This document shows, piece by piece, positions 14,777 to 41,107 of a stretch of DNA of 64,000 nt (its first letter is position 1; the number at the start of each line of letters is the position of its first letter). Under the pieces are notes generated by a model. The model was not told the origin of the DNA. It saw only the letters and a list, made by a program, of their open reading frames with translations, and did no database searches. The stretch covers positions 4,335 through 68,334 of the forward strand of contig CAYILR010000014.1 in assembly GCA_964364175.1 (NCBI GenBank). Reading direction: 5' to 3'. This stretch comes from an uncultured Bacteriovoracaceae bacterium (GTDB lineage Bacteria > Bdellovibrionota > UBA1018). Position numbers and translations under genes: made by a program.

Positions 14777-14860
14777 GAGTAATTCGAAATCACTTCAATC
14801 CAACCAGAGGAGTCGGTGGAGGAATCATCAGAGGAGAACTCTGCTCTAGCGACTCCTCCA

Positions 14861-15015
14861 CCCCCACTGGGAATTTGTCTTTATTTTCGAATACCTGTGT
14901 AAATGTTGCGCGGCGACCGAATCCACACCCCGCCCCCACAACGACATGTGAGCGGGGTGTGGATTCGGTCTGGACAAATTTAACAGTGAAAACAAAGACA
15001 AATTCCCAGTGGGGG
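14861..15015. repeat. Nested long inverted repeat, candidate oriT
   Basis: Perfect 22-bp outer arms (14861-14882/14994-15015) and perfect 19-bp inner arms (14915-14933/14952-14970), just upstream of the relaxase. Confidence 0.75.
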
Positions 15016-15062
15016 CGGTTGGGTTCAAGTGGGGTTGAGGGTGGGGTTCTGGGGGTGGAGGG

Positions 15063-15746: not shown

Positions 15747-15747
15747 A

Positions 15748-17256: not shown

Positions 17257-17461
17257 AAATGCGACTGACAGGGAGCCAGATGAAGTGCTGGAGTGCCTCA
17301 CCTGGTTGGATTCAAAAGAGGCTGCGAAGTATCTTCGTAAAACAGCCAATGCGTTAAGAATCATGGTGTACCGGGGTTATCTCCGGCCCAGGCGATTCCG
17401 GCATAGGCTCTATTTTCGAAGAATCGAACTCGATCGACTGTTGGAATCCTCACCATTTTGA
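17243..17461 (+). CDS. xis: Excisionase-like HTH (HTH_17)
   Basis: WLDSKEAAKYL...RLYFRRIELD pattern, immediately upstream of the integrase. Confidence 0.8.
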   Translation: MGTIENATDREPDEVLECLTWLDSKEAAKYLRKTANALRIMVYRGYLRPRRFRHRLYFRRIELDRLLESSPF

Positions 17462-17462
17462 A

Positions 17463-18695
17463 ATGGGAGGAATGATGGCGGTCACAAAATACGAAAAAGA
17501 CGGGAAAGTTTTCTGGCAGGTGTACGTCGGCATGCGCGGGCGCAAGAATTCGCGCGCGCGCGTGCAGAAACGAATCACAGGAATCACTTCAGAGCGCGAG
17601 GCCATTTCGACTGAAAAACGTCTCCTGCGCGACCTGTCCGAAGAGCTGACAAAGGTCGAAGCGAAAGGTGCCTTCTGGGGCGAAGTCGTCGAGCGTTGGG
17701 CTCGCCACCAAGAGCTTTACCCATCTCGGCGTTACGCGGCGACGACCGTCCAGGACTATGTTGCCATGCTATACAACTGGACGGCGCCTTGGCTCAACCG
17801 GGTCGCCAGCGAGATCAATCGCGGCGATGGGCGCGAAATCATGCGGCAGGCCGAGGATGCCGGAAAAAGTGCAAGTCTCCGTAAAAACCTCAAGTACACC
17901 ATCGGCCAGGTCTATCGCTGGGGAATTGATGAGCGTCTGATCAATGGCGTAACCGAAACCCCGGTACACGGTCTTGAACTTACTCGTGATCGTGAGGAGA
18001 AACGCCCTGACATTCTGACGGTCGAAGAAATTCGCGACTTGCTTCGCAAGGCCAAGGAGCAAAAGCATCCTTGGTATCCAGTCTGGGTGGGCGCCGTGCT
18101 CACCGGCTGTCGTAGCGGAGAACTCCATCAGATGAGAAGGTCCGATCTCGAAGTGGTCTCACGCGATCAAGCCATAGAGGAAAGCAAAAAGCCGTTCGAT
18201 AAGCGCCGATTCGGATTCTTGCGCGTCCGCAAAAGCTGGAACACGCGTGCCAAACAAGCTGGTCCGACCAAGGCGGGCTACTGGCGCAATGTGCCCGTGT
18301 CGAGCGAATTCTACTGGGTTCTAATTCACGATCTTAGAATCGAAAAGATGTCACCAAACGACTTTATTTTTCCAAGAGCCTGGGAGTGGGACAAGGGCGA
18401 ACAAGCCCGCGTGCTCCGCACTTTTTGCATTGGGAACGGACTGCCGTCAGTCAGATTCCACGCCTTGCGTGCCTGTTTCGCGACTCAGCTCATTTCGACA
18501 GGAATTCCCGCGACAGTGGTGATGAAAATCTGCGGATGGAAGGACTTAAAAACCATGCAAAGATACATCCGTCTGGCTGGTGTTGATGAAGCCGGTGCCA
18601 CAGAAGTGCTCCGGTTCGTTCCGACCGAGGAAGCGGTCATGGAGAAGGTAGTGAACCTTTATGGACGCCAAGGGGGCAAGGGTAGCAATGACTAG
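17463..18695 (+). CDS. int: Tyrosine recombinase/integrase
   Basis: TGCRSGE, FHALR, GW and TMQRY catalytic motifs. The true start is probably 17472 or 17475. Confidence 0.93.
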   Translation: MGGMMAVTKYEKDGKVFWQVYVGMRGRKNSRARVQKRITGITSEREAISTEKRLLRDLSEELTKVEAKGAFWGEVVERWARHQELYPSRRYAATTVQDYVAMLYNWTAPWLNRVASEINRGDGREIMRQAEDAGKSASLRKNLKYTIGQVYRWGIDERLINGVTETPVHGLELTRDREEKRPDILTVEEIRDLLRKAKEQKHPWYPVWVGAVLTGCRSGELHQMRRSDLEVVSRDQAIEESKKPFDKRRFGFLRVRKSWNTRAKQAGPTKAGYWRNVPVSSEFYWVLIHDLRIEKMSPNDFIFPRAWEWDKGEQARVLRTFCIGNGLPSVRFHALRACFATQLISTGIPATVVMKICGWKDLKTMQRYIRLAGVDEAGATEVLRFVPTEEAVMEKVVNLYGRQGGKGSND

Positions 18696-18727
18696 TTATT
18701 CTATCTATCTGACTTCATTGAATAATA

Positions 18728-18776
18728 ATTTTAATATTGGCACTACATTTACATTTTATTGTGCCGATATTAAAAT
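18728..18776. promoter_or_regulatory. Inverted repeat operator upstream of abiEi
   Basis: ATTTTAATATTGGCAC-N17-GTGCCGATATTAAAAT (15/16 match). AbiEi proteins autorepress through inverted repeats. Confidence 0.6.
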
Positions 18777-18783
18777 AAAGGTC

Positions 18784-19383
18784 ATGAGAAAAAAGGCAGA
18801 TCTCAAACAACTTAGCCCACTACTCGGCGCACCGAGTTTTACCGCACGCGAGGCAGCCAGCCTCGGCATGCCTGCAGCCAACCTGGCCTATTACGTGAGG
18901 CGCGGCGACCTCGAACGTGTCGCCCACGGCGTATACCGCGCAGCCCAGGCACCCACGACAACCGATTTTCGATGGGAAGATCTCGTCACCGCTCTCCAGT
19001 CGGTTAAAAACGGCGTCGTTTGCCTGACCACAGCTCTTGCACTTTACGATATCACCGAAGAAATTCCTCGCCAGCACTGGATTGCAATCAAGAATTCGAC
19101 TCGTCACCGTTGCGGGTCTGATGTACGAGTCGTAAGAATGAGCAACATGAGCCTGGGCCGCACCACTCTGGACGTCGGTGGAATCTCTGTTCCGATCTTC
19201 GACCGGGAGCGCACCATCGTGGATTCGTTTCGCTATCTCGGCGCTGAAATTGCTATAAAGGCGCTGAAATTTGCTCTCGCAAAGAAAGATCGGGGGCAAA
19301 GGCTCGACCTACGAAAGCTTGCGCAATACGCGGATCGACTCCGATTCGACATCCAACCTTACGTCTTGGCGGTGACGACATGA
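18784..19383 (+). CDS. abiEi: Type IV TA antitoxin AbiEi
   Basis: LERVAHGVYR, CLTTALALYDIT and ERTIVD motifs. ATGA-coupled to the toxin. Confidence 0.88.
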   Translation: MRKKADLKQLSPLLGAPSFTAREAASLGMPAANLAYYVRRGDLERVAHGVYRAAQAPTTTDFRWEDLVTALQSVKNGVVCLTTALALYDITEEIPRQHWIAIKNSTRHRCGSDVRVVRMSNMSLGRTTLDVGGISVPIFDRERTIVDSFRYLGAEIAIKALKFALAKKDRGQRLDLRKLAQYADRLRFDIQPYVLAVTT

Positions 19384-20243
19384 ACGAAACCGCACTCAAA
19401 GAACGCCTGAAAGTGGTCGCAAAGGATAAGGACGTCCTATTCAACGTCGTTTGGAAACAACTCCTTCTGGAGCGTTTCCTCGCACGTCTCTCACGTTCCA
19501 AACACAACGAACATTTTATTTTTAAAGGCGGCATGCTTCTCTCTCAACGAATCAAGATTGGTCGTGAGACCACGGATCTCGACTTCCTGATGACACGACT
19601 CAAAGGCGAAGCTCCCGCCATTGAGTCCGCATTCCGAGAAATTATCACCGTCAGCAACAGCGATGGTTTCACTTTCACTTGGAACGCCGTCTCTGAACTC
19701 ACCCAGCCTCATATGGAATATCCGGGCTTTCGCGTGAATCTGAACGTCGCGCTCGGAAAAATGAAAGACAAAATCCAGATCGACATTGGCATTGGCGATG
19801 CGGTCGAACCCGTCGAGGAACAGTTCCATCCGTTCGAGTATAAGGGCAAGCCACTCTTCGCGGGCGAGATCACGCTTCTCACGTATCCCGTGGAAACGAT
19901 CTTTGCTGAAAAGCTCGAAGCCATCGTCTCGAAGGGCGGCCCCAATAGCAGGATGAAGGACTACCACGACACGCTGCTGATGCTCCGTGAGCCGGGTTTG
20001 ATTTCAGCCTCCGCGCTAAGAGCATCCATTGGCGCGACTTTCCGATATCGAAGCACGACTCTTTCTCTTCCGATCGTCTTTACCGCCGAGGAAATCGTGA
20101 AACTGGAGGCATCTTGGGTGCAGCACCTGACGCGGATCGCGAAGTTTCGCGAGCAGCTCAGAATGCCCACGACAATCCAAGATGTTCTCGCTGAAATCAA
20201 CGCGTGGCTCTCCGCGAACAGCGTCGAGGAAGTGAAACTATGA
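19380..20243 (+). CDS. abiEii: Type IV TA nucleotidyltransferase toxin AbiEii
   Basis: FKGG, RETTDLDF, AEKLEA and SRMKDYHD motifs. Confidence 0.92.
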   Translation: MNETALKERLKVVAKDKDVLFNVVWKQLLLERFLARLSRSKHNEHFIFKGGMLLSQRIKIGRETTDLDFLMTRLKGEAPAIESAFREIITVSNSDGFTFTWNAVSELTQPHMEYPGFRVNLNVALGKMKDKIQIDIGIGDAVEPVEEQFHPFEYKGKPLFAGEITLLTYPVETIFAEKLEAIVSKGGPNSRMKDYHDTLLMLREPGLISASALRASIGATFRYRSTTLSLPIVFTAEEIVKLEASWVQHLTRIAKFREQLRMPTTIQDVLAEINAWLSANSVEEVKL

Positions 20244-20458: not shown

Positions 20459-21199
20459 TTACGTGTGTTGTTCATACTTCTCTCGAACCTCTCTCGCATA
20501 TTTTTCAAGATAGGGTTTTCGTTCGGGTCCACGTACGTGGCTCAAGGCCGGGGGAGAAATCAAAGGTAGAAAGCAGACCTCTACTGTCCCTGGCTGAACA
20601 CCCCAGCTCCTTCCTCTGTTGATGTTGCGAGGAATGCTGAGATACAAAGGCTGGATCGAACATTTGAGTTCCGCAGCGAGGTGAAACGCCCCCTTGTTGA
20701 ATTTGCCAAATTCGCCTGTGGTGATGCGGGTACCCTCGGGCGTGAGGAAAGCGGATTCTCCAGACTTTTTAAGTTCACGGCACGCTTGGGCAAATTGCCT
20801 TTCGCGTTGAACAGGAAAGTCTTGAGTATCTAGATAAAAAACTCTGGCCAAGACCGCCAATGCTGTTACTGGAAAAATGGGTATTGTTTTTTTGGAGAGA
20901 AAAAACCGCGTTCGAGGAAGTCCCAAGGCCAATATGACTAGCATATCGAGGCTTGTCGAATGGTTGCTGATAAAAATCAGCTGTTCGGAGGAAAAAACGT
21001 CAGGACGATGATGGACTTTCAGTTTGATTCCATGCAGCCCTAAAATCATCTCTGCAAGAATCCGCAATATTTTTTCAGAAAAAAAGTACCTCGCTCGTCC
21101 CAATGTAAAAATGAGCGTGATGGCTCCCAGAACAAAAACGACAAAAATCAAAAAGAAAGCCATTGCTAACTTTACTACCGGTAGAAAACTATTTTTCAC
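20459..21199 (-). CDS. PlsC-family acyltransferase
   Basis: NHSTSLD (HX4D) and TPEGTR motifs. Confidence 0.88.
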   Translation of the reverse strand: MKNSFLPVVKLAMAFFLIFVVFVLGAITLIFTLGRARYFFSEKILRILAEMILGLHGIKLKVHHRPDVFSSEQLIFISNHSTSLDMLVILALGLPRTRFFLSKKTIPIFPVTALAVLARVFYLDTQDFPVQRERQFAQACRELKKSGESAFLTPEGTRITTGEFGKFNKGAFHLAAELKCSIQPLYLSIPRNINRGRSWGVQPGTVEVCFLPLISPPALSHVRGPERKPYLEKYAREVREKYEQHT

Positions 21200-22160
21200 A
21201 GATCACCGTTTGCATAGAAAGATTGAGCCGCCTCTGAAACAAAAAGAAGGGGCTGGTTAAAACCTGCCCCAAAAAGTAGGGCCCGGTCCATAATTTGAGA
21301 TTCATCCCTCGGCCTCTCAAAATCTTAAATAGCGCTCCGGTAAAAAAATAAAAATAAGGAGGAAAAGCTCCGTAGGGTAGGTAATCTACCACTTTCAAAC
21401 CAGCAGATTCCACAAACTGGAGCAAATGGGCCTTGTCAAAAATCACCGTGTGTTGAGGAGCCTGAAATCCAGGCCAACGGCTTTGAAAAAGTTGATAACT
21501 GAGGCTGTCCAGTCGTGGCACTTCGATCACAATTCGACCGGTTTTACTGAGTGCATCCTTAGCGCTCTGCAAGGTTTTCATCGGGTCGTAGCAGTGCTCA
21601 AGAAAATGCCACAGGGTAATGAGGTCGTACTGATTTGACGGAAGATCTTGGTTAAAAAATTCACCGTGATAAAAATCAATGTGTTCAAAATCTGGAAATC
21701 CATCAAATCGTTTGAAGTCTACTCCTGCGACTTTTGATCCATAGGTTTTTCTAATCTTGTTTAGAAAAGTCCCTGTGGCACACCCGCCGTCGAGTACGTG
21801 ACTCTGTGGTCCTAGCTGGACATAATTGTTGATGATTTCTAGTTTTTTCTTGTTGTGTTGATCCATTCCCCACTGAGTGAGAAAAGAAAAAATGCCCCAG
21901 TCCTTTTTGTTTCGATGGGCAATGTATTGATCATCGTAAAAAGCACCGATTTGATCAAACGTTAGGCGCGGATTTTGAAAAACTAATCCACATTCTTGGC
22001 ATTGCCCAAATCGAAAGTTACCCGGTTTGCCAGTCAGGTCTTCCTGGGCAATGGCAAATTCTTGATCATCGGCAAAAGCCCCGCATTGATAACAGGGGAC
22101 TGTCTCAAATTGATAGTGATTCGGATTTTCCAGGCGTGAGATGTCAATTATTGTATTCAT
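21189..22160 (-). CDS. Class I SAM-dependent methyltransferase with N-terminal Cys motif
   Basis: CxxC...CxxCGL, VLDGGCATG and WHFLEH motifs. Confidence 0.88.
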   Translation of the reverse strand: MNTIIDISRLENPNHYQFETVPCYQCGAFADDQEFAIAQEDLTGKPGNFRFGQCQECGLVFQNPRLTFDQIGAFYDDQYIAHRNKKDWGIFSFLTQWGMDQHNKKKLEIINNYVQLGPQSHVLDGGCATGTFLNKIRKTYGSKVAGVDFKRFDGFPDFEHIDFYHGEFFNQDLPSNQYDLITLWHFLEHCYDPMKTLQSAKDALSKTGRIVIEVPRLDSLSYQLFQSRWPGFQAPQHTVIFDKAHLLQFVESAGLKVVDYLPYGAFPPYFYFFTGALFKILRGRGMNLKLWTGPYFLGQVLTSPFFLFQRRLNLSMQTVICEK

Positions 22161-22750
22161 ACATGTTTTTCCTTGTCGTGAACGACTTCATAAAAAATAA
22201 ACAAACCCCAGACGGTGATCATGGTCAGCAAGAGTGGAAAACTCAATTCGAGACCAGGTCGAAAAGCCTCTGCTCCCAAAAATGCAACCAGTGGATATTT
22301 CAGCAGAGGAACCGACCAATGAAGCAGATGTGTATGTGTTGCTCGATTCCAATAGGTTTTCCAAAATTCGATAAAAACAAAAAGCCCAAGGAACTTGAGA
22401 TAGACACCCCATTTAATCCATAGTGAAAGACTGAATAACAAGAACATCAAGACCCATTTAAAGTAAATATCCATTCCTGGAGTAGTGACGATTCGACGTG
22501 GTATTTTATCGCGATCTTCTTGGATGCTGAGAAGGTCATCTTGAATACGCAGACAGAGCAAAAACAAAAGTGTGACCCAGAACATTCCCAAAGCATCTGT
22601 CCCACGTATGCTGCGAATTCCCTGCGAAGCAAAGAGGATGGAAAGCACCAAAATACAGGCCACAGGAGCAAAGACCCGAAGAGGAAAACGTTCGCGACAG
22701 TAGGAGAAAAATGGAAAAAGTCTAATAACGAATTCTCCCTGTATTGCCAT
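22157..22750 (-). CDS. Short UbiA prenyltransferase-like membrane protein
   Basis: ERFP N-terminal motif, Asp-rich RIQDDLLSIQEDR loop and multiple TM helices. Start uncertain. Confidence 0.55.
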   Translation of the reverse strand: MAIQGEFVIRLFPFFSYCRERFPLRVFAPVACILVLSILFASQGIRSIRGTDALGMFWVTLLFLLCLRIQDDLLSIQEDRDKIPRRIVTTPGMDIYFKWVLMFLLFSLSLWIKWGVYLKFLGLFVFIEFWKTYWNRATHTHLLHWSVPLLKYPLVAFLGAEAFRPGLELSFPLLLTMITVWGLFIFYEVVHDKEKHV

Positions 22751-25217
22751 CGACTTGGATGGGAGAAGAATTTGTAAATCGCGTGGTGGCGCCTGGGACT
22801 CCGACGACTGCTGGGATCCCCAACTCTCTTGCAAGGATGGCGCCGTGAGAGAGCATTCCGCCCCGCTCCAAGACTAGTCCAGAAACTAACGGAAATGCCG
22901 CAGCCCAACCCGGATCGGTTTGTCGGGTCACTAGGATTTCTCCCTTGATCAGGCCTGCTGATTCTGCGACCGATTGGAGGACCCGTGCTTGTCCTGACGC
23001 AAATCCTCCAGAGACGGGAATTCCAGTGATTTCTGTTTCGCTCTCTTGAATTGCAAATGGATCAGTCGAGGAAACTCCAGACTTAAAATATTCACCAGGT
23101 GCTAAAACTAAAGTTTCTGGAGGCTGTAATGCCGAAACCTTTTCAAATTCCGTTTTTCTCAGGTGAGCAAACGGTCGGAGTGTTTCGGGGAGCATGTATG
23201 CGCCTTCGAGATACTGGGAGATTTCTTGATGGTGTAAGAAAAAAATATCGTCCCGATTTTCTAAATATCCTTTGTGTTGCATCTCTTGGCCGATTTTGAG
23301 AAGAGTTGCCCGAAACTGTGCATAGAGCTGGGCTTGCTTCATTCGTGCTCGTTCCCGAAACGAAATCGCCTTTTCGGTCAAAAAACTGGTGGATTTCAAA
23401 ATGATAAATTTAAAATACTGAGTTTCTTTGTGGATTTGTTGCCATAGTTTTGCTTTCTCGAACTCTTGCTTTTTAAAGAGTGCTCGAGGTTCCTCGATGG
23501 GTTGTAAGACATAGTTTCGTAGAATGGGGATCCACTCCGTGGGCACTTCATTGAAATGAGGAACGGTCAAAAGAAGTTCACCCGAACATCGAAAGCCCCA
23601 CTGATCGAGATAGGTTTTTATTTCCAAAAAAAGCCCCGAGTACTGAGAGTCGGATTGAATGCGAGACCAGATTTCTTTTTCATTGGATGGACTGGTGATC
23701 ATAGAAAACCAATTGGGATGGGATTTGATTTTTTCTGCTAGCTCCCAAAGGGCTTGATTGGGTTGATTGCTGATCAGTTGACCTTGTCCTACGAGGAGAG
23801 TGTTGCGGACGGAGTCTCCTTTTTCCCCAAACCATCGGCGAGTCAGCATTCCCAAAAATCCATAAGTGACCATGGCAGCGAGATCGGCGATTGAGGCATT
23901 TTTCCAAATTTTAAAACGAATTTTAAAAAACTGCTGAAAGGCAGATCGAATGTTCTGAGGATGTTGATCGCAGAAAGCAAGATGACTGTTTACTTCTTTT
24001 TCAAAAAACTGAACTCGTGCAGAAAGTCGTAACGCAGTGAAAAAGCTGGTCAGTGTCATTTGGATTAACTCTGTTTTGCGAAGAGGGCTGCAAACAGCTG
24101 GAGCTTGAGTAGACGCATCCAAATCTTGATACTGACCCAGAAAATCGTCAAACCATCGAGAGAGCGTAGATCCAAAAGGGAGGTGTCTGATCATGAAATG
24201 AAGATTTGAAAAATGGTAATATAACCTAGCGCCGTGACATCCGACTGCGTTGCGAAGGCAGTTCTCTAGAGCCAAGAGAAGTCGGTGGGGAACACCGAGT
24301 GATTTCCCTAGATCGCGGTAGTAATAGTAGTATGAATCATAAGCGACCGAGTAAAGCAGCGGCGAGATGGGGACTGGATAGTTTTCATTGAGGTTTACAT
24401 TGGACCAAACCACCTTGGGTGAGGTCGGAGCTCGGAGGAGCGGAGTAGTGATCGGTCTTGCTTGAACGATAAAAAGTGTGTGATCAGGATCTACGACCCA
24501 CTCAATGTCCATCGGTCGTCCGGCACGAGATTCAATTTGCTGGGCTAGTGTTGCAAGTTTTTCGATGATAGGCTTGGGCAATTTTTTTGTCGGGTGCTGC
24601 TCTGGAGAGCGATGATTGTTGATTCTAAAAACGTTTTTGGTTTCCGACGCGACTTCGAAACTACCTGGGTTGATGTTGCCAGAGACCAGCTCATGCCCTG
24701 GCCCAAAGTGATATTCGCAATAGAGAGGCGATGTACCCTGCGTGAAGCACACGCCAGAAGACCAGGGAGTAATTGCTTTTTGTACAATCACTCCCATTCC
24801 TCGAAGAGAGACATTCATTCGCTTTTGGTAACTCACGCATCGTGCAGAATAATAGGAGCTCCAGACGTCGATGATTCCATTTGCCAATTGCGAAGACTCG
24901 CAAAGGACTGAATCCAACTGGCCCGCGAAGGAATTAGTTTCTGAATCTTCGCCAATGGCAGAGCTTCGCACCATCCAAGGTCCGCTTGGATGGATTTTCT
25001 GTTGACAGAAGTCAATGATTTCTTGAGTGAGTGAGTCCAGAAAAGTTTTTGCTGCTTCGTCAGTGAGGAGTGAAAATTTATTAAATACAGAGTGTGGAAT
25101 AACGCATCCGCCCGGAACTGGCGCATTTTTTTGTATGAGCTGAGAAAGTGAATGAGCTTTTCCGCCTACTTCTTCGATGGGAATTACCTCGGTGAGGGAA
25201 AAGAAACGCCTTTGCAT
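22722..25217 (-). CDS. PEP-utilising dikinase-type enzyme (PigC/rifampin phosphotransferase architecture)
   Basis: N-terminal ATP-grasp (GGKA, VRSSA.GED..SFAGQ, DIEW, QARPIT), helical middle and C-terminal phospho-His domain (TDPGW, GGMLSHGAILARE). Confidence 0.88.
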   Translation of the reverse strand: MQRRFFSLTEVIPIEEVGGKAHSLSQLIQKNAPVPGGCVIPHSVFNKFSLLTDEAAKTFLDSLTQEIIDFCQQKIHPSGPWMVRSSAIGEDSETNSFAGQLDSVLCESSQLANGIIDVWSSYYSARCVSYQKRMNVSLRGMGVIVQKAITPWSSGVCFTQGTSPLYCEYHFGPGHELVSGNINPGSFEVASETKNVFRINNHRSPEQHPTKKLPKPIIEKLATLAQQIESRAGRPMDIEWVVDPDHTLFIVQARPITTPLLRAPTSPKVVWSNVNLNENYPVPISPLLYSVAYDSYYYYYRDLGKSLGVPHRLLLALENCLRNAVGCHGARLYYHFSNLHFMIRHLPFGSTLSRWFDDFLGQYQDLDASTQAPAVCSPLRKTELIQMTLTSFFTALRLSARVQFFEKEVNSHLAFCDQHPQNIRSAFQQFFKIRFKIWKNASIADLAAMVTYGFLGMLTRRWFGEKGDSVRNTLLVGQGQLISNQPNQALWELAEKIKSHPNWFSMITSPSNEKEIWSRIQSDSQYSGLFLEIKTYLDQWGFRCSGELLLTVPHFNEVPTEWIPILRNYVLQPIEEPRALFKKQEFEKAKLWQQIHKETQYFKFIILKSTSFLTEKAISFRERARMKQAQLYAQFRATLLKIGQEMQHKGYLENRDDIFFLHHQEISQYLEGAYMLPETLRPFAHLRKTEFEKVSALQPPETLVLAPGEYFKSGVSSTDPFAIQESETEITGIPVSGGFASGQARVLQSVAESAGLIKGEILVTRQTDPGWAAAFPLVSGLVLERGGMLSHGAILARELGIPAVVGVPGATTRFTNSSPIQVDGNTGRIRY

Positions 25218-25283
25218 TTATAAAATCCATACGACACTTCAATAGCTATTGTAAATCTGGATCAGATGATTCACTGATAGAGG

Positions 25284-26201
25284 ATGACAGGCGACGTTCG
25301 ACTCTTTGCTGGTTGGCAGATCATTGGGTCATTGGGAGCGGTAACATTTGTTTCAATTCTGCTGATACTATCTCCCTCGGGGTTCAGTTGGGTGATGGGT
25401 GAATGTCTTCTGGGTCTTGGGATGTTGCAATGGTTCATAGTGCTTCACGAGGCGGGGCACGGTACTTTGTTTTCATCCAAAAAGTTAAATTTTATTATGG
25501 GTCATGTGGCATCGGTTTTCTGTGCAATTCCTTTTACTTCCTGGAGGCATATTCACCGACTTCATCATGTTTGGACGGGATGGAGAAATATTGACCCCAC
25601 GACGGAAAGTACATTGCCAAAAACACTTTCTCCGATCCAAAAAAAAATCATGAGGCTGGCTTGGACGTCTGGGTTTCCATTGTTTTCGATCATTTATCGT
25701 CTCGACACCTATTGGAATTTGTCCAAACTTAAGAGAAGTCTAGAAAGTCGCCCGTTTATTTCGTCGAGAAAAAACATCCTATTCTTGGGAATTTTTTATT
25801 TGATGTGTATTTTCTTGCTCAAGGTATTGTTCGTAAAACTTTTCGTTCTTCCGTTTTTGATTTCGCTCGTTCTAGCAGATCCAATTTTGATGAGTCAGCA
25901 CAACCATGTGACGATGAGATTGGCTCCGGAATCTAACGTAAAGCCTTTTCCCGCGGGAGCTCAAATAGAATTTACTCGGGAGCTCGTTGCTCCTCAGTGG
26001 GTTTCTCGATACATTCTTTTGGGGTTTGATCGGCACGCGCTTCATCACAAATATCCTACCGTTCCCGGATACCGCCTTCCTTTCATGAGAGAGAGTGTAC
26101 CCATCCGATATGGTTTTTTTGATTGGATTCGGCGTGCAAAACAAATTCCAGCTGACCAGTTGGTTTTTAGTCATCGAGCGGAGAGCGGATTGGATATTTA
26201 A
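25284..26201 (+). CDS. Membrane fatty-acid desaturase/hydroxylase
   Basis: His boxes HEAGH, HRLHH and HALHH. Confidence 0.88.
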   Translation: MTGDVRLFAGWQIIGSLGAVTFVSILLILSPSGFSWVMGECLLGLGMLQWFIVLHEAGHGTLFSSKKLNFIMGHVASVFCAIPFTSWRHIHRLHHVWTGWRNIDPTTESTLPKTLSPIQKKIMRLAWTSGFPLFSIIYRLDTYWNLSKLKRSLESRPFISSRKNILFLGIFYLMCIFLLKVLFVKLFVLPFLISLVLADPILMSQHNHVTMRLAPESNVKPFPAGAQIEFTRELVAPQWVSRYILLGFDRHALHHKYPTVPGYRLPFMRESVPIRYGFFDWIRRAKQIPADQLVFSHRAESGLDI

Positions 26202-26213
26202 AGGGATTGATTT

Positions 26214-27104
26214 ATGAAGAGTCATCTAACAAATTTATTACCCGAGCAACGCAGGCCCTTGATTCAGAGGCTCTTGTCGCATTTGGCTGGGAAAAAAGTG
26301 ATCAAAGCAATTGAGGCGCACCATGGCTTGAGCGCCAGAATTGCGGAAGACGCTGGGTATGATGCAATCTGGGTGAGTTCTTTGACTGAGACGGCCTCGC
26401 GCGGGCTTCCGGATATCGAGTTAGAAGGTTATTGGCCGCGGCTCGAGCTCGTTCACGAAATTCTCAATGTCTGTTCGCTCCCTGTGATTGTGGATGGGGA
26501 TACGGGTGGTACCATCGATCAGTTTTGTCATTTGGTTCAGGAGCTCGAACGGATGGGAGTTTCAGCAGTTGTAGTCGAAGACAAAGTTTTTCCGAAAGCC
26601 AATAGTTTTGACGAATCACGAACGCAGGTTCTTGAGGATCCGGATCGCTTTGCGCTGAAGATTCGGAGAGGTCGGCAAGCGCTTCGAACTCAGGACTTTC
26701 TACTCATTGCTCGCATCGAGACATTCATTGTGGGCGCGAATCTAGAAGACGCGATTTTTCGCGCAAAATCCTACATCGAAGCGGGAGCTGACGGTATCGT
26801 CATTCATTCTAAGTCCGTTTCCCCGGAGGAAGTATTTGAGTTTGCTCAGCAGTATCAGCGCCTCGATCGAAAAGTACCGCTTTTTGCTATTCCAACGACC
26901 TATCATGAGGTGAAAACTTCTGAACTTCAGAAGGTGGGATTTCATGGAGTGATCTATGCGAATCATCTTTTGAGGAGTTCTGTTTTTGCTATGAGGCAGG
27001 TCGCTGCGTCTATCTTGGAGGAAGACCGCAGTTCAGAAGTGGAAGACTTTTGTGTTCCCGTAAAATCTCTCTTGAACGAGTTAGTCAATGATTACAGGCA
27101 TTGA
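26214..27104 (+). CDS. pepM: Phosphoenolpyruvate mutase
   Basis: ICL/PEPM fold (DGDTG) with the diagnostic EDK-X5-NS motif (EDKVFPKANS). Confidence 0.92.
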   Translation: MKSHLTNLLPEQRRPLIQRLLSHLAGKKVIKAIEAHHGLSARIAEDAGYDAIWVSSLTETASRGLPDIELEGYWPRLELVHEILNVCSLPVIVDGDTGGTIDQFCHLVQELERMGVSAVVVEDKVFPKANSFDESRTQVLEDPDRFALKIRRGRQALRTQDFLLIARIETFIVGANLEDAIFRAKSYIEAGADGIVIHSKSVSPEEVFEFAQQYQRLDRKVPLFAIPTTYHEVKTSELQKVGFHGVIYANHLLRSSVFAMRQVAASILEEDRSSEVEDFCVPVKSLLNELVNDYRH

Positions 27105-29292
27105 ACCGACACTTCTATTAGAGGAGTTTAAAAAGCAGGGAATTAAAAACTGCGTGGGAGTTCCTGATTCAACATTGCAAACTCTTGTTGAGGCGATTTC
27201 ATTAACGCCTGAAATGGATCACCAGATTGCTACCAACGAGGCAGAAGCAATGGCGTTAGCGCTTGGACAATTCTTGGCAACGGGGAAGCCTTCTCTCGTT
27301 TATCTTCAAAATTCGGGTCTCGGAAATATTATCAACCCACTGACCTCTCTTTTTCTGGAAGACTCCTATCGGATTCCTGCGATTTTGATGGTGGGTATGC
27401 GTGGCGATGTTGAAAGCGGCAGCGATGAACCACAGCACTTGTTGATGGGGCGAATCACTTCGCCGCTTTTGGATTTGGCCGGTGTGACTCACGAGGTACT
27501 TTCTCAGGATCCCTCGGATTGGGTCAATCAATGTTCTAAACTTTTTAGGGAAGCCACCGAGAATCGTCTTCCGGTTGCTTTGCTGTTTCCACGAAATCGT
27601 TTGCGCAAACCGAGCCATTCCGAAAAGGAAAAGGGAGCATCCGAACTCTATTCTCTTTCGAGGAGGGAGGCGATTGAATCTCTTCGCAAAGAACTTCCTC
27701 CTTCAACTTTTTTTGTTTCCTCGATCGGAAAAGCTTCTCGAGAGTTGTTTGAAATCAACGAATCCCAGGGGCATGGACATGCCAGTGCCTTTTATGGAAT
27801 CGGTGGGATGGGATGTAGTTCTGGAGTGGCTCTGGGCTATGCGCGGAGTATGCCGCAAAGAGATGTTTGTGTTTTCGATACCGATGGCGCAGCGCTCATG
27901 CATTTGGGAAATTTGGCCACCATTGGTCATTGTAAGCCTCCTAATTTGTTTCACATTCTTTTGGATAATGAAGCCCACGATTCAACGGGAGGTCAATGGA
28001 CGGCTTCGAGTTCAACCGACTTAAGTGAAGTAGCTCGAGCGTGTGGCTATCCTTGGGTCCGTCGCGTAGAAACTTTGACCGAATTGCAAACGGCATTGGA
28101 GGAAGGGAAAAGAGTAAGCGCCCTTCGATTTTTACATATCAAATGCAGAAGAGATCAAAATGAAAAACTAGGACGTCCAACACACCTGCCACAGAAACAA
28201 ATAGCCGAGATTTTAGCAGCCCGAGCTCAAAGCGAATTGATTGAGGGGAGAGGAAGCATCAGTCAACTATCCTCGATTCTTGATTGTTTAGAATCCAAAC
28301 GTTGTCTTTTAGTGAGTCGGAACGAGGATTACTCCCACCATCTATTGAGCAGGAGTCATCGATCGGAAGTGAGATCGTATCGGTTGTCTACTCCGTTGCT
28401 TACACTCGAAAATATTGAAGAGGCACAGCGAGTTCTTTTTGATCCAGGAAATTGGGAGCCGGACACCATCGTGAGCATTGGTGGGGGCTCGGTGATCGAT
28501 CTTGCAAAAATATTGCACCATAGATCCACTAGCATTCGACACCATGTAGCGGTTCCCACCACAGCTGGAACGGGTTCTGAGGTCACTCCGTTTGCCACTT
28601 ATTATGTGAATGGAAGGAAGGAGAGCCTTGCTGATTCACGAATTTTGCCGGATCGAGTGATCTTGGATTCAAGTCTTCTGGAGAGCCTACCGGAAAGAAT
28701 AGTCATATCTTGTGCGCTGGATGCTTTTTCTCATGCAGTTGAATCACATTGGTCGATTCAGTCGAATCCAGAATCGCTCTGTTATTCTGCCCGTGCGCTT
28801 ACACTTTTGCGCGAACACTGGGTCGAGGTCGATCGAGCCCATTTGATGGCAAAAGAGCACTTAGCTGGGCTGCAAAAGGCAGCGTACTGGTCGGGAAAGG
28901 CAATTGCAATTTCACAAACTACCTTAGCACATGCATTGTCATATGGATTGTCCGCAGAGGAAGGTGTTCCTCATGGTATTGCTGTTTTTTTAAATCTTCC
29001 CACTGTAACAAGATACAACATCGAAACTCATGAGGAGACAGCGTCTGATCCCCGCGGTTTAAATTTCATGAATGCGCGTTTGTCCGAGATTGCCAGGTAT
29101 TTGGGATGTCGATCTGTTGCCGAGTTGCCGGTCTTAATGGATAATCTGATCCAAAAATTTGGCCTCAGAGAACTGCAACAGTCTCTCGATGGCAAAATCT
29201 CCAAGAGAATTGCAACGGCAAAGTTTTTTGGTCGATCCAAAAACAATCCTAGAAAATTTGATGAGGAGGCTCTTCGTGAATATTTTAGATAG
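27088..29292 (+). CDS. ppd: Phosphonopyruvate decarboxylase fused to an Fe-dependent alcohol dehydrogenase (phosphonoacetaldehyde reductase)
   Basis: GVPDS, YLQNSGLGN..NPL.SL, DEPQH and TPP motif DGAALM...N. The C-terminal half has GGGSVIDLAK, PTTAGTGSE, DAFSHAVES, AHALSY and PHG. Confidence 0.9.
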   Translation: MITGIEPTLLLEEFKKQGIKNCVGVPDSTLQTLVEAISLTPEMDHQIATNEAEAMALALGQFLATGKPSLVYLQNSGLGNIINPLTSLFLEDSYRIPAILMVGMRGDVESGSDEPQHLLMGRITSPLLDLAGVTHEVLSQDPSDWVNQCSKLFREATENRLPVALLFPRNRLRKPSHSEKEKGASELYSLSRREAIESLRKELPPSTFFVSSIGKASRELFEINESQGHGHASAFYGIGGMGCSSGVALGYARSMPQRDVCVFDTDGAALMHLGNLATIGHCKPPNLFHILLDNEAHDSTGGQWTASSSTDLSEVARACGYPWVRRVETLTELQTALEEGKRVSALRFLHIKCRRDQNEKLGRPTHLPQKQIAEILAARAQSELIEGRGSISQLSSILDCLESKRCLLVSRNEDYSHHLLSRSHRSEVRSYRLSTPLLTLENIEEAQRVLFDPGNWEPDTIVSIGGGSVIDLAKILHHRSTSIRHHVAVPTTAGTGSEVTPFATYYVNGRKESLADSRILPDRVILDSSLLESLPERIVISCALDAFSHAVESHWSIQSNPESLCYSARALTLLREHWVEVDRAHLMAKEHLAGLQKAAYWSGKAIAISQTTLAHALSYGLSAEEGVPHGIAVFLNLPTVTRYNIETHEETASDPRGLNFMNARLSEIARYLGCRSVAELPVLMDNLIQKFGLRELQQSLDGKISKRIATAKFFGRSKNNPRKFDEEALREYFR

Positions 29293-29866
29293 CTGTGTCC
29301 TTGCAATCATCATTGTTGGAGTTTTCTTGGTGGTGGGAGTACCTCAGGCTTTTTGGCTGAGGTCAAATACCATTCGCAAGTGTCGGATTCCGCTAGATGC
29401 CGGGAAAACTTTTCGTGGGAGGAGAATTTTCGGAGAGAACAAAACTCTCGGTGGTCTTGTCGTGATGGTGCCGGGGATTACTCTTGCATTTGGTATGACG
29501 GGACTTGCTTTGGCATATTGGGCACCCGAGTGGCTCGAAATCATCGGCTGGCCGGTTCGAAGTGAAGAGTGGTTGCTTTTGGGTTTCGTGACCTCTTGCT
29601 GTTATATGTTGGGAGAATTACCCAATTCATTCGTTAAACGACAGTGGGGAGTTCCCGCAGGAGGCATCCCCGACCACAGGCTAGGGAGATTGCTCTGTTT
29701 TGTGGCAGACCAAGTGGACTCCGTTTTTGCATTTATGTTGGCCCTGGTTTTTCTCGTACCGACGAGTTGGACGTTGTTTGGATTTATTTTTGTTTTTGGA
29801 GCAGTAGCTCATTGGCTTTATAATGTCGTTTTGTTTAAAATGGGATTGAAGTCTCGGGCAGGCTGA
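29276..29866 (+). CDS. CDP-archaeol synthase (CarS/DUF46)-like membrane cytidylyltransferase
   Basis: PLDAG...GRRIFGENKT..G, GELPNSFVKRQ.G and DQVD motifs. GAGGAGG precedes GTG 29276; ATG 29261 is an alternative start. Confidence 0.8.
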   Translation: MNILDSCVLAIIIVGVFLVVGVPQAFWLRSNTIRKCRIPLDAGKTFRGRRIFGENKTLGGLVVMVPGITLAFGMTGLALAYWAPEWLEIIGWPVRSEEWLLLGFVTSCCYMLGELPNSFVKRQWGVPAGGIPDHRLGRLLCFVADQVDSVFAFMLALVFLVPTSWTLFGFIFVFGAVAHWLYNVVLFKMGLKSRAG

Positions 29867-30604
29867 ATGATTTGGCGAAATTGGACTCTGACAAAAACTG
29901 CAGTTTGGTTCATTTATTGGGTCGATTTTACACTGTTTTACTATCTCTGGCCGAGAATATTGGAAATTCTCGGGTTTTCTATGGCAAAAATTTGGACCTA
30001 CCCGGATCGATTTTCCAAGCGGGCGTGTCGCTTGTTTGGGATTGAACTGAAGGTTCACAAAATGCAGGCGCTCTCGGTGAGGAATGCAATTGTCGTTGCC
30101 AATCATCGATCGTGGATGGATCAGATTGTTTTGGTGGCAGCGCTTCGCGGACTGAATCTTCGGTTTATGGCAAAGGCCGACTATTTGAAAATTCCCATCC
30201 TCAAGCAGGTCATGGAGCTGTATGGATTTTATTTTGTGCGCGATGGAAAGTTGCTGGAACCCGACAGAGAGAGACTGATTTCGGATTTGAAAAACGGGGC
30301 CTCAGTCGTGATTTATCCCGAGGGCACGCGCGGTTCAGGAAATCAGTTGTTGCCCTTCAAATCAGGAGCATTTCGCTTGGCTCAGCAAACCGGTGTTCCG
30401 GTGCTACCTGTGTTTATTATCGGCACCGAGGGAATTCTGTCCAAAAAAAATTCTCTGCTTAGCATACATCCGGGCAAGGTCGAGGTTTGGATTGGGGCGC
30501 CGGTATGTTTTCAGACTTCTGATGCACATCAGGAATTTGAATTAGAATATCGAAAAAAATTCGAATCCCTGGTGGCTGATCATCGAGAAATCCAACCGTC
30601 GTGA
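29867..30604 (+). CDS. PlsC-family acyltransferase
   Basis: NHRSWMD, FMAK, YPEGTR and PFKSGAF motifs. Confidence 0.9.
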   Translation: MIWRNWTLTKTAVWFIYWVDFTLFYYLWPRILEILGFSMAKIWTYPDRFSKRACRLFGIELKVHKMQALSVRNAIVVANHRSWMDQIVLVAALRGLNLRFMAKADYLKIPILKQVMELYGFYFVRDGKLLEPDRERLISDLKNGASVVIYPEGTRGSGNQLLPFKSGAFRLAQQTGVPVLPVFIIGTEGILSKKNSLLSIHPGKVEVWIGAPVCFQTSDAHQEFELEYRKKFESLVADHREIQPS

Positions 30605-41021: not shown

Positions 41022-41107
41022 AGATAAAAATTATTTGGTTCTTGCTCGTAAATGATACAGTTTCTGGTAGACATGTAGTTATGACTAAAAACCAATTTAA
41101 GAATTTT

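Follow-up and report, generated by a model that had tools for sequence, protein, structure and literature searches.

How could a phosphonate be built into a lipid by a gene cluster that places the synthesis of 2-hydroxyethylphosphonate (HEP) among lipid enzymes and has none of the usual partners of such pathways? The window analysed here, i.e., the whole stretch of 64,000 nucleotides from an uncultured Bacteriovoracaceae bacterium, raises this question, and the layout of its locus hints at an undescribed route to phosphonate lipids in an uncultured groundwater bacterium.

Organisation of the locus

Nine intact, close-packed genes form two divergent operons with 66 bp between them, and the ORF check and the Pfam and NCBIfam searches returned them at the positions and in the families given in the preliminary description of this DNA. 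The minus-strand operon encodes an RPH-type dikinase, a small UbiA-fold protein, a methyltransferase, and PlsC1; the plus-strand operon encodes a desaturase-like protein, PepM, a Ppd-FeADH fusion, a CarS-like protein, and PlsC2.

13901..20243, plus strand: mobile-element flank with TrbI-like protein, TraG/TraD-type coupling protein, tyrosine integrase, and AbiEi/AbiEii (context, outside the pathway)
20459..21199, minus strand: PlsC1, PlsC-type acyltransferase (PF01553, E 5.7e-18)
21189..22160, minus strand: class I SAM methyltransferase (Methyltransf_23, E 5e-19)
22157..22750, minus strand: small polytopic membrane protein of UbiA-type fold, 197 aa (fold and Asp-rich motif; ORF to 22834)
22722..25217, minus strand: dikinase-type phosphotransferase (PPDK_N, E 5.6e-38; PEP-utilizers, E 1.6e-24)
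25218..25283, no strand: divergent intergenic region of 66 bp between the two operon starts
25284..26201, plus strand: membrane di-iron desaturase/hydroxylase-like protein (FA_desaturase, E 1.3e-27)
26214..27104, plus strand: PepM, standalone PEP mutase (TIGR02320, 322.5 bits vs. cut-off 319.55)
27088..29292, plus strand: Ppd fused to Fe-ADH (TIGR03297, 386.4 bits vs. 312.5; Fe-ADH Pfam domains)
29276..29866, plus strand: CarS-like membrane protein, putative CTP-dependent cytidylyltransferase (PF01864, 36 bits vs. 22; ORF start 29159)
29867..30604, plus strand: PlsC2, LPAAT-like acyltransferase (PF01553, E 9e-29; TIGR00530, 100.1 bits vs. 102.95)

A CarS-like database protein (P0002) begins at residue 40 of the CarS-like ORF. 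The junctions around pepM and ppd-adh consist of one 12-nt gap and 17-nt overlaps, and PlsC2 starts at the base right after the carS stop (gap of 0 nt). The catalytic motifs, in what we take to be their usual definitions, are kept in PepM, both PlsC, the desaturase-like protein, and the dikinase. A promoter scan of the 66-bp intergenic region gave no more sites than shuffled sequence. The desaturase/pepM, pepM/ppd, ppd-adh/carS, and carS/plsC2 junctions are each bridged by contigs with 0-1 differing letters, and because these contigs come from three studies, the gene arrangement is real and the assembly is not chimeric.

The phosphonate genes and the partners looked for

PepM carries the EDKVFPKANS motif and is encoded by the only pepM copy in the genome. 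It is a bare protein of 296 aa, without a cytidylyltransferase domain; even its nearest relatives do not exceed 51% identity, most of the 120 matches listed carry a fused PF01467 domain, and one is named [quoted passage not shown] by its source. This bears out the earlier remark that no LicC/PntC-type partner is present. In relatives of the same family and order, PepM is fused to a CyTase and encoded in loci of polysaccharide or teichoic type. About 12 further Ppd-ADH fusions of the same architecture, 31-37% identical, were found in the protein collection. Homology shows PepM, a Ppd domain, and an Fe-ADH domain, a set that would convert PEP into HEP, the predicted reaction of the fusion being PnPy to PnAA to HEP. 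The HEP enzyme set proposed in the preliminary description therefore holds for PepM and Ppd, both above their cut-offs, and for the presence of an Fe-ADH domain, but this domain scores under the phosphonate-specific equivalog cut-off (TIGR03405, 149.5 vs. 423.7 bits).

The cluster lacks the usual partners, as had been noticed: no AEP transaminase reached the cut-off in the 94%-complete genome (best 165 vs. 360.8), no PntC or CDP-alcohol transferase is linked to the cluster, and the three CDP-OH_P_transf genes of the genome all lie on other contigs. Searches with Pfam and NCBIfam found no cytidylyltransferase domain, LicD, glycerophosphotransferase, or glycosyltransferase within the cluster; HEPD, MpnS, and Fom3 are not present among its genes, and it holds no transferase for a CTP-activated product.

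A conserved lipid operon with inserted phosphonate genes

Six genes of the window make up the colinear core, desaturase-CarS-dikinase-UbiA-like-methyltransferase-PlsC, of a conserved operon of which we found no published description. Among 80 metagenome loci examined out of at least 576 related ones (all picked by the CarS-like profile), the CarS-like gene is present in 80, with the desaturase directly upstream in 66, the dikinase directly downstream in 59, and the methyltransferase and PlsC in 24, lower counts that largely reflect locus truncation because many of these loci are short. The 22 loci that span 8 kb or more encode UbiA-like protein, methyltransferase, and PlsC (19 each), FAAL (17), ACP-reductase-APH (16), and CDP-OH_P_transf (6). 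The full nine-gene order, in which the core is followed by FAAL, ACP-reductase-kinase, and CDP-alcohol transferase, occurs in 2 Acidobacteriota genomes, and the set of CarS, dikinase, UbiA, and CDP-OH-transferase also recurs in loci of Clostridia and CPR. In each of the three system types, the dikinase gene adjoins or overlaps the UbiA-like gene. Elsewhere, the module combines a branch from fatty acid to alcohol to phosphate (FAAL, then ACP-reductase-kinase) with a CDP-alcohol transferase of its own. Judged by its gene content, this is a conserved and widespread, uncharacterised lipid operon.

In all 66 loci with a desaturase upstream of CarS, the projected distance between the two genes ranges from -12 to 122 nt (median 6); in the window it is 3,074 nt, a space filled by pepM and ppd-adh. 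Neither Ppd-ADH (0/80) nor a true PepM (0/80) occurs in the metagenome loci; the single "PepM" match among them was rejected, since it belongs to a prp operon and is a methylisocitrate lyase. As comparative genomics shows, pepM and ppd-adh have been inserted, translationally coupled, into a pre-existing, widely conserved lipid operon. The window has no FAAL/reductase-kinase branch and no CDP-alcohol transferase in the cluster, and has HEP synthesis and a second PlsC instead; a search of the genome for homologues of the module's FAAL, reductase-kinase, and CDP-OH transferase turned up none. One metagenome locus, L109, has the same gene set with two PlsC, no FAAL branch, and no phosphonate genes, so that the second PlsC is not specific to the phosphonate variant and a mapping in which HEP replaces the alkyl-phosphate branch is not unique. 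The different route to lipids suggested in the preliminary description is partly supported, by the missing canonical partners, but it is no unique collection of enzymes; it is a conserved operon carrying inserted pepM and ppd-adh. Since the desaturase, methyltransferase, dikinase, UbiA-like protein, CarS, and PlsC1 are each found at loci devoid of phosphonate genes, they cannot be taken for tailoring enzymes specific to a phosphonate.

The proteins of the module

The CarS-like protein has a single sequence match in the PDB, the CDP-archaeol synthase 5guf (E 4e-9), with which it has the NKTxxG, SFxKRxxG, and DQxDS blocks in common, and it retains the invariant residues of its family. Its relatives number 827 in 1.84e9 representatives, and some are fused to PlsC or dikinase: there are fusions of CarS, PlsC, and dikinase (1228 aa), of CarS and dikinase (964 aa), of CarS and PlsC (four proteins of ~400 aa each), and of CarS and a fatty-acyl-reductase domain. 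Such natural fusions link the parts of the module functionally. The HX4D motif reads HSTSLD in PlsC1 (residue 80) and HRSWMD in PlsC2. PlsC1 is the orthologue of the conserved operon's PlsC, with 36-45% identity to it in 24 of the 80 loci; the pairing of CarS with PlsC2 has counterparts in a CarS-PlsC pair in locus L075, a PlsC2-desaturase fusion in L109, and the CarS-PlsC fusion proteins.

The dikinase has the architecture of rifampin phosphotransferase, i.e., ATP-grasp, central domain, and C-terminal swivel domain with its His intact, and no pyruvate/PEP barrel. Its closest solved chains are 5fbs/5hv1 (E 1e-55), its best NCBIfam matches (PRK06241-type, Rph, PigC, RedH) all score under cut-off, and it is 30-39% identical to the dikinases of 59 of the 80 loci. 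It most likely phosphorylates a hydroxyl, as do its closest characterised relatives. The small membrane protein had been called UbiA-like, a label for which fold and one Asp-rich motif speak, but not family profiles: it matches no Pfam family and scores 19.2 bits against an NCBIfam cut-off of 443. The best PDB fold matches of its AF2 model (pLDDT 85.1) are DGGGP synthase and UbiA homologues, at E 1e-2 or weaker, so that the match suggested by the model is a weak one. In alignment A2 of its homologues, which occupy the slot directly after the dikinase in 19 of the 22 long loci, D71, D72, D79, P84, R86, and a KYP motif are invariant, and position Asp75, kept in at least 90% of homologues, is Ser in the window. 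The methyltransferase, with CxxC...CxxC in its N-terminal part, is the best-conserved member of the module (46-57% identity in 24 of 80 metagenome loci; 50-55% in 3 of 301 Acidobacteriota genomes sampled). The desaturase-like protein has three His boxes and is 33-47% identical to its counterparts in 66 of the 80 loci, always with CarS directly downstream.

The cluster was probably acquired horizontally, as its sequence context suggests. GC content falls from ~0.52 to 0.45 at 20 kb, the cluster boundary; conjugation, integrase, and AbiE genes adjoin it; and the CarS-like gene was not found in any of 36 genomes of the same family. At positions with at least 90% conservation among the other sequences, the six module proteins of the window deviate in 13-34% of cases; the medians for those other sequences are 0-2%. 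A PLD-type gene lies 9 kb downstream of the cluster.

Possible routes to a phosphonate lipid

We favour, with roughly even credence, the reading that the locus is a phosphonate-fed variant of the conserved lipid-assembly operon, in which HEP enters the module and the membrane CarS-like enzyme replaces a soluble cytidylyltransferase. Every step beyond HEP, i.e., the exact chemistry, is what we infer. HEP would stand in for the phosphorylated alcohol of the module as the phosphorus-bearing building block, and its hydroxyl might be acylated by PlsC-type enzymes; if the desaturase-like enzyme first hydroxylates C1, the two PlsC could yield a two-tailed C-P analogue of phosphatidic acid. The CarS-like enzyme may then activate the lipid phosphonate with CTP, the role played elsewhere by soluble PntC or Fom1-type cytidylyltransferases, and the UbiA-fold protein or an enzyme outside the cluster might hand the activated lipid to an acceptor. 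To our knowledge, every CarS-type enzyme described so far acts on lipid phosphate monoesters, with no precedent for a phosphonate, and we know of none for acylation of a two-carbon phosphonate by PlsC; since the module is at work elsewhere in the absence of phosphonate, adaptation to a C-P substrate is not demonstrable for any of its enzymes.

CarS and PlsC would need no new substrate class if HEP were the head-group alcohol and the module made a CDP-activated lipid, with PlsC acylating, the dikinase phosphorylating a hydroxyl of the lipid, and the CarS-like enzyme adding the cytidylyl group. A transferase of CDP-alcohol or PLD type would couple this lipid to the HEP hydroxyl and give a phosphatidyl-HEP-type lipid whose free terminal phosphonate makes it a non-hydrolysable analogue of phosphatidylglycerol phosphate. 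A CDP-alcohol transferase normally ends the module, the versions in Clostridia and CPR also have one, and the genome offers the three CDP-OH_P_transf genes and the downstream PLD-type gene. Yet the variant that gained HEP is the one without the module's own CDP-alcohol transferase, the opposite of what is predicted, and the transferase would have to be a housekeeping gene on another contig, so that we regard both this route and its product as rather unlikely. HEP could instead be activated at its hydroxyl, phosphorylated or pyrophosphorylated by the dikinase, before the UbiA-fold enzyme moves the 2-phosphonoethyl group as an ether onto a hydroxyl of glycerol or lipid, both PlsC acylate, and CarS activates the phosphonate. 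This uses every gene of the cluster, explains two PlsC, and suits the constant neighbourhood of dikinase and UbiA-like genes, the retained Asp-rich motif of diphosphate-binding type, and best fold matches to ether-forming DGGGP synthases, but the weakness of that match, the Ser at position 75, and the presence of dikinase and UbiA-like protein in L109 without HEP or FAAL genes all speak against it. UbiA enzymes use allylic or anomeric diphosphates, and we know of no case in which the donor is a primary alkyl diphosphate; what RPH-type enzymes are known to transfer is a single phosphate, not pyrophosphate. Such a scheme is very unlikely.

The phosphonate genes might also share only transcription with the lipid operon, HEP going to a glycan, a secreted or an unrelated product and the module making an ordinary phosphate lipid. 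In favour of this, HEP or PepM loci elsewhere in the phylum, including those of the same family and order, are of polysaccharide or teichoic type, and the module does without phosphonate in all other loci examined. We consider this quite unlikely, given that the two genes sit between two module genes with such tight junctions, that the cluster encodes no cytidylyltransferase domain and none of the glycan-type transferases searched for, and that the genome has a single pepM. That the cluster came in recently as the passenger of a mobile element and is non-functional or decaying is highly improbable: the adjoining conjugation, integrase, and toxin-antitoxin genes, the GC shift, and the strong divergence of the proteins from the main clade would fit, but the nine frames are intact, the catalytic motifs are retained, as are the residues invariant in the CarS-like and UbiA-like families, and the sequence is near-identical in runs from three studies.

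Comparison with known systems

The beginning of the phosphonate-fed variant favoured here resembles the early pathway of other HEP producers (PepM, Ppd, and an Fe-ADH such as PhpC/FomC/DhpG), with PepM and Ppd above equivalog cut-offs followed by an Fe-ADH domain, and the nearest relatives of its PepM are Fom1-like fusions of the kind that cytidylylate HEP. It differs in the fusion of Ppd and ADH, in having lipid enzymes as neighbours, and in a PepM and ADH devoid of a soluble cytidylyltransferase domain (Fom1-type or PntC). HEP-type neighbourhoods make up 8.5% of 434 in the excerpted text of PMC8942020. According to the same excerpts, with which the earlier mention of phosphonosphingolipids in Bacteriovorax stolpii agrees, the Burkholderiales "CDP-OH" Group 1 and the B. 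stolpii phosphonosphingolipid cluster (GCF 761) are, like the window, PepM-based with a presumed membrane product and have phospholipid-type genes adjoining ppm, but use AEP transaminase, PntC, and CDP-alcohol transferase, none of which is in the window cluster.

The full module has, as separate genes, the domain types of ElbD (ligase-ACP-reductase-acyltransferase) of the myxobacterial elb operon, as given in part of PMC9131029, whereas the fatty acyl-AMP ligase/ACP-reductase branch is missing from the window; the portions of the elb accounts consulted (PMC9131029, 2026 sponge preprint) do not mention genes of CarS-like, dikinase, or UbiA-like type. The dikinase has the three-part architecture, length, and conserved catalytic-His swivel domain of RPH and PigC/RedH, but scores far under the Rph, PigC, and RedH equivalog cut-offs, and, unlike RPH, has membrane-lipid enzymes as partners and is found in fusions with CarS and PlsC. 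Archaeal phospholipid assembly (DGGGP synthase, CarS, then CDP-alcohol transferases) likewise pairs a CarS-family enzyme with a UbiA-fold membrane protein, and the full bacterial operon also ends in a CDP-alcohol transferase. The window cluster shows neither a G1P dehydrogenase nor a GGGP synthase, however, and its UbiA-fold protein is about two-thirds of the usual length and under the Pfam UbiA threshold; to the archaeal scheme, the bacterial module adds PlsC, dikinase, methyltransferase, and a fatty-acid reductase branch.

Gene content and arrangement of the cluster

The cluster at 20459-30604 comprises nine genes arranged as two divergent operons, with 66 bp between their start codons, and the ORF listing, together with Pfam and NCBIfam scans, bears out the tightly packed layout claimed in the preliminary description.

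Table. Proteins encoded in the cluster (leftward operon, minus strand; rightward operon, plus strand; scores in bits against cut-off).
Leftward; dikinase-like protein; 831 aa, PPDK_N and a C-terminal PEP-utilizers swivel domain
Leftward; small membrane protein (UbiA-like); 197 aa, no Pfam match
Leftward; methyltransferase; Methyltransf_23
Leftward; PlsC1 acyltransferase; PlsC-type
Rightward; FA_desaturase-like protein
Rightward; PepM; TIGR02320, 322.5 against 319.55
Rightward; Ppd-FeADH fusion; TIGR03297, 386.4 against 312.5
Rightward; CarS-like protein; PF01864, 36 against 22
Rightward; PlsC2, second acyltransferase

Since a database protein (P0002) begins at residue 40 of the ORF, the start of the carS-like gene is most likely at 29276. 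The junctions of the rightward operon consist of a 12-nt gap, two 17-nt overlaps and a 0-nt gap, and are so tight that its genes are probably coupled in translation. A promoter and terminator scan over 20.0-31.6 kb returned sites no more numerous than in shuffled sequence.

The arrangement is real. A 5.5-kb stretch over the rightward operon is present in sequencing runs of three studies, those of the runs that carry an organism label being groundwater metagenomes, and run contigs span the desaturase/pepM, pepM/ppd, ppd-adh/carS and carS/plsC2 junctions with 0-1 differences; these contigs exclude those of one run that may be the source of the assembly. No RNA dataset is listed among the runs with this stretch, which has no bearing on expression. 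At window position 30595, one contig in each of two runs, from two studies, matches rightward and diverges leftward, and one run shows a doubling of depth in the last bin. The DNA downstream of 30595 may be shared by a related population without the cluster, in which case the end of plsC2 would be the boundary of a variable region.

Genes for hydroxyethylphosphonate synthesis

PepM passes the TIGR02320 equivalog cut-off marginally (322.5 against 319.55 bits) and is the lowest-scoring true PepM in our sample of the phylum. Its residues 122-131, EDKVFPKANS, correspond to the active-site motif EDKxxxxxNS, which separates PepM from other enzymes of the isocitrate-lyase superfamily. The Ppd domain scores 386.4 bits against 312.5 for TIGR03297 and matches both TPP_enzyme_N and TPP_enzyme_C. 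The Fe-ADH domain passes the generic Fe-ADH Pfam domains but fails TIGR03405, the PsrA/PhpC-type model (149.5 against 423.7 bits, over residues 484-650 only), which is still its top ADH model. The set of 2-hydroxyethylphosphonate (HEP) genes claimed from the sequence is present, with PepM and Ppd above their cut-offs and the Fe-ADH below the phosphonate-specific equivalog cut-off. By homology, the three enzymes are predicted to convert PEP into phosphonopyruvate, phosphonoacetaldehyde and finally HEP.

The genome carries a single pepM. Identity between its product and the nearest relatives does not exceed 51%. Among the 120 matches listed, the majority carry a fused PF01467 cytidylyltransferase, and one such protein is named in its source as PEP phosphomutase / HEP cytidylyltransferase. 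Relatives of the Fe-ADH are often PF12804 fusions, with or without LicD.

A conserved lipid operon around CarS-like genes

A first search for CarS-like genes, limited to one genome per species, gave 32 loci with distant relatives (at most 36% identity), none of which has a PepM; a dikinase match lies beside the CarS-like gene in 17 of them, mostly from Clostridia MAGs, with one Gottesmanbacteria locus. An exhaustive HMMER search of 1.84 billion representatives gave 827 relatives, the best non-self match being 45% identical. Several are natural fusions (P0043, P0044, P0047, P0048, P0061, P0070, P0083): CarS+PlsC+dikinase (1228 aa), CarS+dikinase (964 aa), CarS+PlsC (four proteins of about 400 aa) and CarS+NAD_binding_4 reductase.

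Metagenome contigs were scanned with a profile of the 33 closest relatives (A1), and at least 576 stretches encode CarS-like proteins. When the best 80 of these at least 576 loci were searched with the window proteins (tblastn), they revealed a colinear operon of desaturase, CarS, dikinase, a slot of about 600 nt, methyltransferase and PlsC, which we call the module. The desaturase was found in 66 of the 80, the dikinase in 59, and the methyltransferase and PlsC in 24 each, the lower counts mainly reflecting missing locus ends because many loci are only 1-3 kb long. ORF clustering and Pfam, applied to the 22 loci of at least 8 kb, placed a protein in the slot between dikinase and methyltransferase in 19 of the 22 and, after PlsC, a fatty acyl-AMP ligase (FAAL) in 17, a 910-aa protein with PP-binding, NAD_binding_4 and APH kinase domains in 16 and a CDP-alcohol phosphatidyltransferase in 6, this last count being limited by locus ends.

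The complete nine-gene order (desaturase, CarS-like, RPH-type dikinase, UbiA-fold protein, Methyltransf_23, PlsC, FAAL, ACP-reductase-APH kinase, CDP-alcohol transferase) occurs in two Acidobacteriota genomes (L176, G670:C1; L177, G446:C7), and an orthologue of the methyltransferase in 3 of 301 sampled Acidobacteriota genomes. The operon is conserved across soil and groundwater metagenomes (loci L057-L133), and its product may be an ether, diol or alkyl-phosphate lipid. A literature search for the module found no description, which leaves prior publication possible; the module is conserved, apparently uncharacterised, and interesting in its own right.

Related sets occur in rumen Clostridia MAGs and in a Gottesmanbacteria (CPR) MAG (L010 9950-18025; L014 3989-8847). 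In one Clostridia locus the genes run in the order CarS-like, dikinase, CDP-alcohol transferase, PS decarboxylase, UbiA and second dikinase; the Gottesmanbacteria locus contains CarS-like, UbiA, dikinase and CDP-alcohol transferase genes. These sets include a full-length UbiA, a second dikinase and a GNAT-like gene, with the PS decarboxylase in Clostridia only, and the UbiA and dikinase genes abut or overlap in each locus.

The phosphonate genes interrupt the module

Orthologues of all six core genes of the module are present in the window: five of its proteins match those of metagenome locus L059 at 35-53% identity (tblastn), and its UbiA-like protein matches the slot proteins with E down to 1.9e-12. 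In all 66 loci with both genes, the desaturase stop and the CarS start are separated by a projected -12 to 122 nt (median 6); in the window the spacing is 3,074 nt, and pepM and ppd-adh fill it exactly. Judged by this gene order, the phosphonate genes are an insertion into the module operon. Ppd-ADH is absent from all of the best 80 of at least 576 metagenome loci; the sole PepM match in the 80, in L062, belongs to a prp operon, where it encodes a methylisocitrate lyase and has PrpD and citrate synthase as neighbours.

The window module is not colinear on a single strand, being split into two divergent halves, of which the one from dikinase to PlsC1 is inverted and the other is interrupted by pepM and ppd-adh. 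No close homologue of the module's FAAL, reductase-kinase or CDP-alcohol transferase was found in the genome, which is 94% complete. The same reduced set is found without phosphonate genes in locus L109, with a divergent PlsC1, a PlsC2-desaturase fusion, CarS, dikinase, UbiA-like protein and methyltransferase, and L075 is a bare CarS-PlsC2 pair. The idea that PlsC2 arrived together with the phosphonate genes is weakened by these two loci and by the CarS+PlsC fusions.

Canonical partners and origin of the cluster

Neither Pfam nor NCBIfam finds an AEP transaminase, a PntC/LicC-type cytidylyltransferase or a CDP-alcohol or LicD transferase in 20.4-30.6 kb, so that the claimed absence of AEP-type partners holds for the locus. 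Nor does any AEP transaminase reach the cut-off elsewhere in the genome, where PhnW-type scores go no higher than 165 against 360.8. The three CDP-OH_P_transf genes (on contigs C46, C1 and C30) and the NTP_transf_3 genes, which are of generic type only, all lie on contigs other than that of the window.

PepM exceeds its cut-off in 34 of 401 sampled genomes of the phylum, and in the 30 phylum loci fetched no module gene lies within 1.5 kb of it. Two genomes of the same family have fusions of a cytidylyltransferase to PepM (CyTase-PepM) within polysaccharide loci, and a genome of the same order has CyTase-PepM, Ppd, Fe-ADH, a glycerophosphotransferase-like gene and sulfatases. Compared with these loci, the arrangement in the window is atypical even within its own lineage. 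In one same-family genome (G018), CyTase-PepM, Ppd and Fe-ADH are followed in a polysaccharide locus by a 602-aa protein (L168 12722-14530) that joins a squalene-hopene-cyclase-like repeat region to a Methyltransf_23 domain. In the same-order genome G040, we considered that a PepM at a contig end might adjoin a CarS-like gene at the start of another contig; this is not supported by the neighbours, which are Glyphos_transf and sulfatases on one side and a CDP-OH transferase of housekeeping type on the other.

A search of 36 same-family genomes found the CarS-like gene in none of them. Immediately upstream (13901-20243) are genes for a TrbI-like protein, a TraG/TraD-type coupling protein, a tyrosine integrase and the AbiEi/AbiEii pair, which suggests an integrative conjugative element or its remnant; no tRNA-type integration site was identified, the window having no tRNA, and no flanking repeat was identified either. 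GC falls from about 0.52 to 0.45 at the cluster boundary, and of the positions highly conserved in the soil clade, 13-34% are changed in the six module proteins. Taken together, the lack of the CarS-like gene in the same-family genomes searched, the mobile genes, the GC drop and the divergence suggest that a deep-branching form of the module was acquired horizontally. The same conserved positions were considered as a means to spot a substrate-switched enzyme; all six proteins are outliers (13-34%), which shows a deep branch only.

Three further features downstream of the cluster were noted, the first two in the same low-GC stretch and with no apparent link to the cluster.
33214-34224, minus strand: O-methyltransferase with dimerisation domain (Methyltransf_2)
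35197-36075, minus strand: DUF4423/HTH regulator
39675-42001: PLD-superfamily gene (two PLDc_2, cardiolipin/PS-synthase type), then a Tim44-like domain protein, 9 kb downstream of the cluster
PLD-type enzymes can use CDP-activated lipids, which makes the PLD gene a remote candidate for the missing transfer step.

Predicted enzymes of the lipid module

The CarS-like protein scores above the gathering cut-off of PF01864 (36 against 22 bits). In the PDB, the profile of 33 relatives has a single match, the CDP-archaeol synthase 5guf (E 4e-9), and the NKTxxG, SFxKRxxG and DQxDS blocks align between the two. It fails the CDP-archaeol synthase equivalog NF003114 (61.6 against 148 bits); CDP-archaeol synthase proper acts on unsaturated archaetidic acid.

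The UbiA-like protein, at 197 aa short for the roughly 280 aa of UbiA, has no match to PF01040 in the Pfam scan, and its slot homologues in L059 and L109 fall below that cut-off (24.9 and 21.5 against 34.2 bits). Its AF2 model (pLDDT 85.1) has only UbiA members as top Foldseek matches in the PDB (7bpu, 6m31, 4tq3, 4od4, 8djk, 8j8k), among them DGGGP synthase, UbiA homologues, UBIAD1 and a membrane phosphoribosyltransferase, all weak (none better than E 1e-2; TMq 0.51-0.60), and in the Atlas it reaches TM 0.68 to a UbiA cluster. The UbiA fold carries two Asp-rich Mg-diphosphate motifs, of which the first reads DDxxSxxxD here and the second is not clear; D71, D72, D79, P84, R86 and KYP are invariant in 19 aligned slot proteins. 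A word-based homologue search returned only the protein itself, its homologues surfacing through synteny alone. Going by the fold matches and the one Asp-rich motif, we file the protein as a putative UbiA-fold protein rather than a proven member of the family. A FAAL-derived alkyl diphosphate as its donor was considered and is weakened by L109, which keeps dikinase and UbiA-like protein without FAAL.

The dikinase matches PPDK_N at residues 62-258 and PEP-utilizers at 758-827 only, with no PEP/pyruvate-barrel domain, an RPH-type layout of ATP-grasp, central domain and C-terminal swivel His domain. Its best solved matches are 5fbs/5hv1, which we take to be the Listeria rifampin phosphotransferase, and it is far below the equivalogs Rph (249 against 999), PigC (210 against 1300) and RedH (221 against 1350). 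Both PlsC proteins pass PF01553 and have the HX4D motif at residue 80 (HSTSLD and HRSWMD); for TIGR00530, PlsC2 scores 100.1 against 102.95 bits and PlsC1 58.7.

Discussion

Comparison of loci shows that HEP synthesis is embedded in a lipid module, with which it is predicted to be co-transcribed, and fusions tie the CarS, PlsC and dikinase of this module together. HEP would substitute for the phosphorylated alcohol of the module, the PlsC enzymes would acylate it, and the CarS-like enzyme would cytidylylate the resulting lipid phosphonate, thereby accounting for the lack of a soluble cytidylyltransferase. Three points weigh most against this main reading: the module operates without phosphonate everywhere else, L109 has the two-PlsC, FAAL-less form without HEP genes, and the cluster variant lacks a transferase for the CTP-activated product. 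Less probably, the phosphonate genes might merely be co-transcribed with the lipid operon.

Decay of the cluster is improbable; its catalytic motifs are intact (EDKVFPKANS in PepM, HX4D in both PlsC, the swivel His in the dikinase and the three His boxes that the desaturase-like protein carries). Also less probably than in the main reading, HEP might be the head-group alcohol, in a genome whose CDP-OH_P_transf genes are all away from the locus, or its phosphonoethyl group might be transferred through the dikinase and the UbiA-like protein, the latter with its single clear Asp-rich motif. Taken as a whole, the observation made in the preliminary description is confirmed and its interpretation supported in part, and we read the finding as a variant of PepM-based lipid modification resting on a conserved lipid operon.

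We consider it improbable that the module is a bacterial counterpart of the archaeal line of UbiA-fold and CarS enzymes, driven by an RPH-type dikinase and here re-plumbed so that HEP gives a C-P analogue of phosphatidic acid and then a CMP-phosphonolipid. If it were, a phosphonate would for the first time be seen to undergo membrane-bound, CarS-type nucleotidyl activation, the product would be a new class of phosphonolipid with a two-carbon backbone, and a nine-gene operon spread through soil and groundwater bacteria would gain its first function. The phosphonate variant gives a handle on that operon, with a C-P label easily traced by 31P-NMR. More speculatively, a product that resists phospholipases or phosphatases would be relevant to the protection of their own membranes by predatory or surface-attached bacteria.

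To our knowledge, all described phosphonolipid routes depend on soluble cytidylyltransferases, and the locus of about 10 kb is a compact test case for another logic, that of a membrane CarS-type enzyme with PlsC acyltransferases. It differs from the elb ether-lipid genes, for which the relevant sections of PMC9131029 and of a 2026 sponge-symbiont preprint mention no CarS, dikinase or UbiA-like partner. The passages of PMC8942020 on which we draw, which cover HEP-type neighbourhoods and the AEPT-type cluster of B. stolpii, indicate that almost no phosphonolipid pathway has been worked out so far, even though the modification of lipids or glycans is the presumed role of about half the PepM clusters in bacteria.
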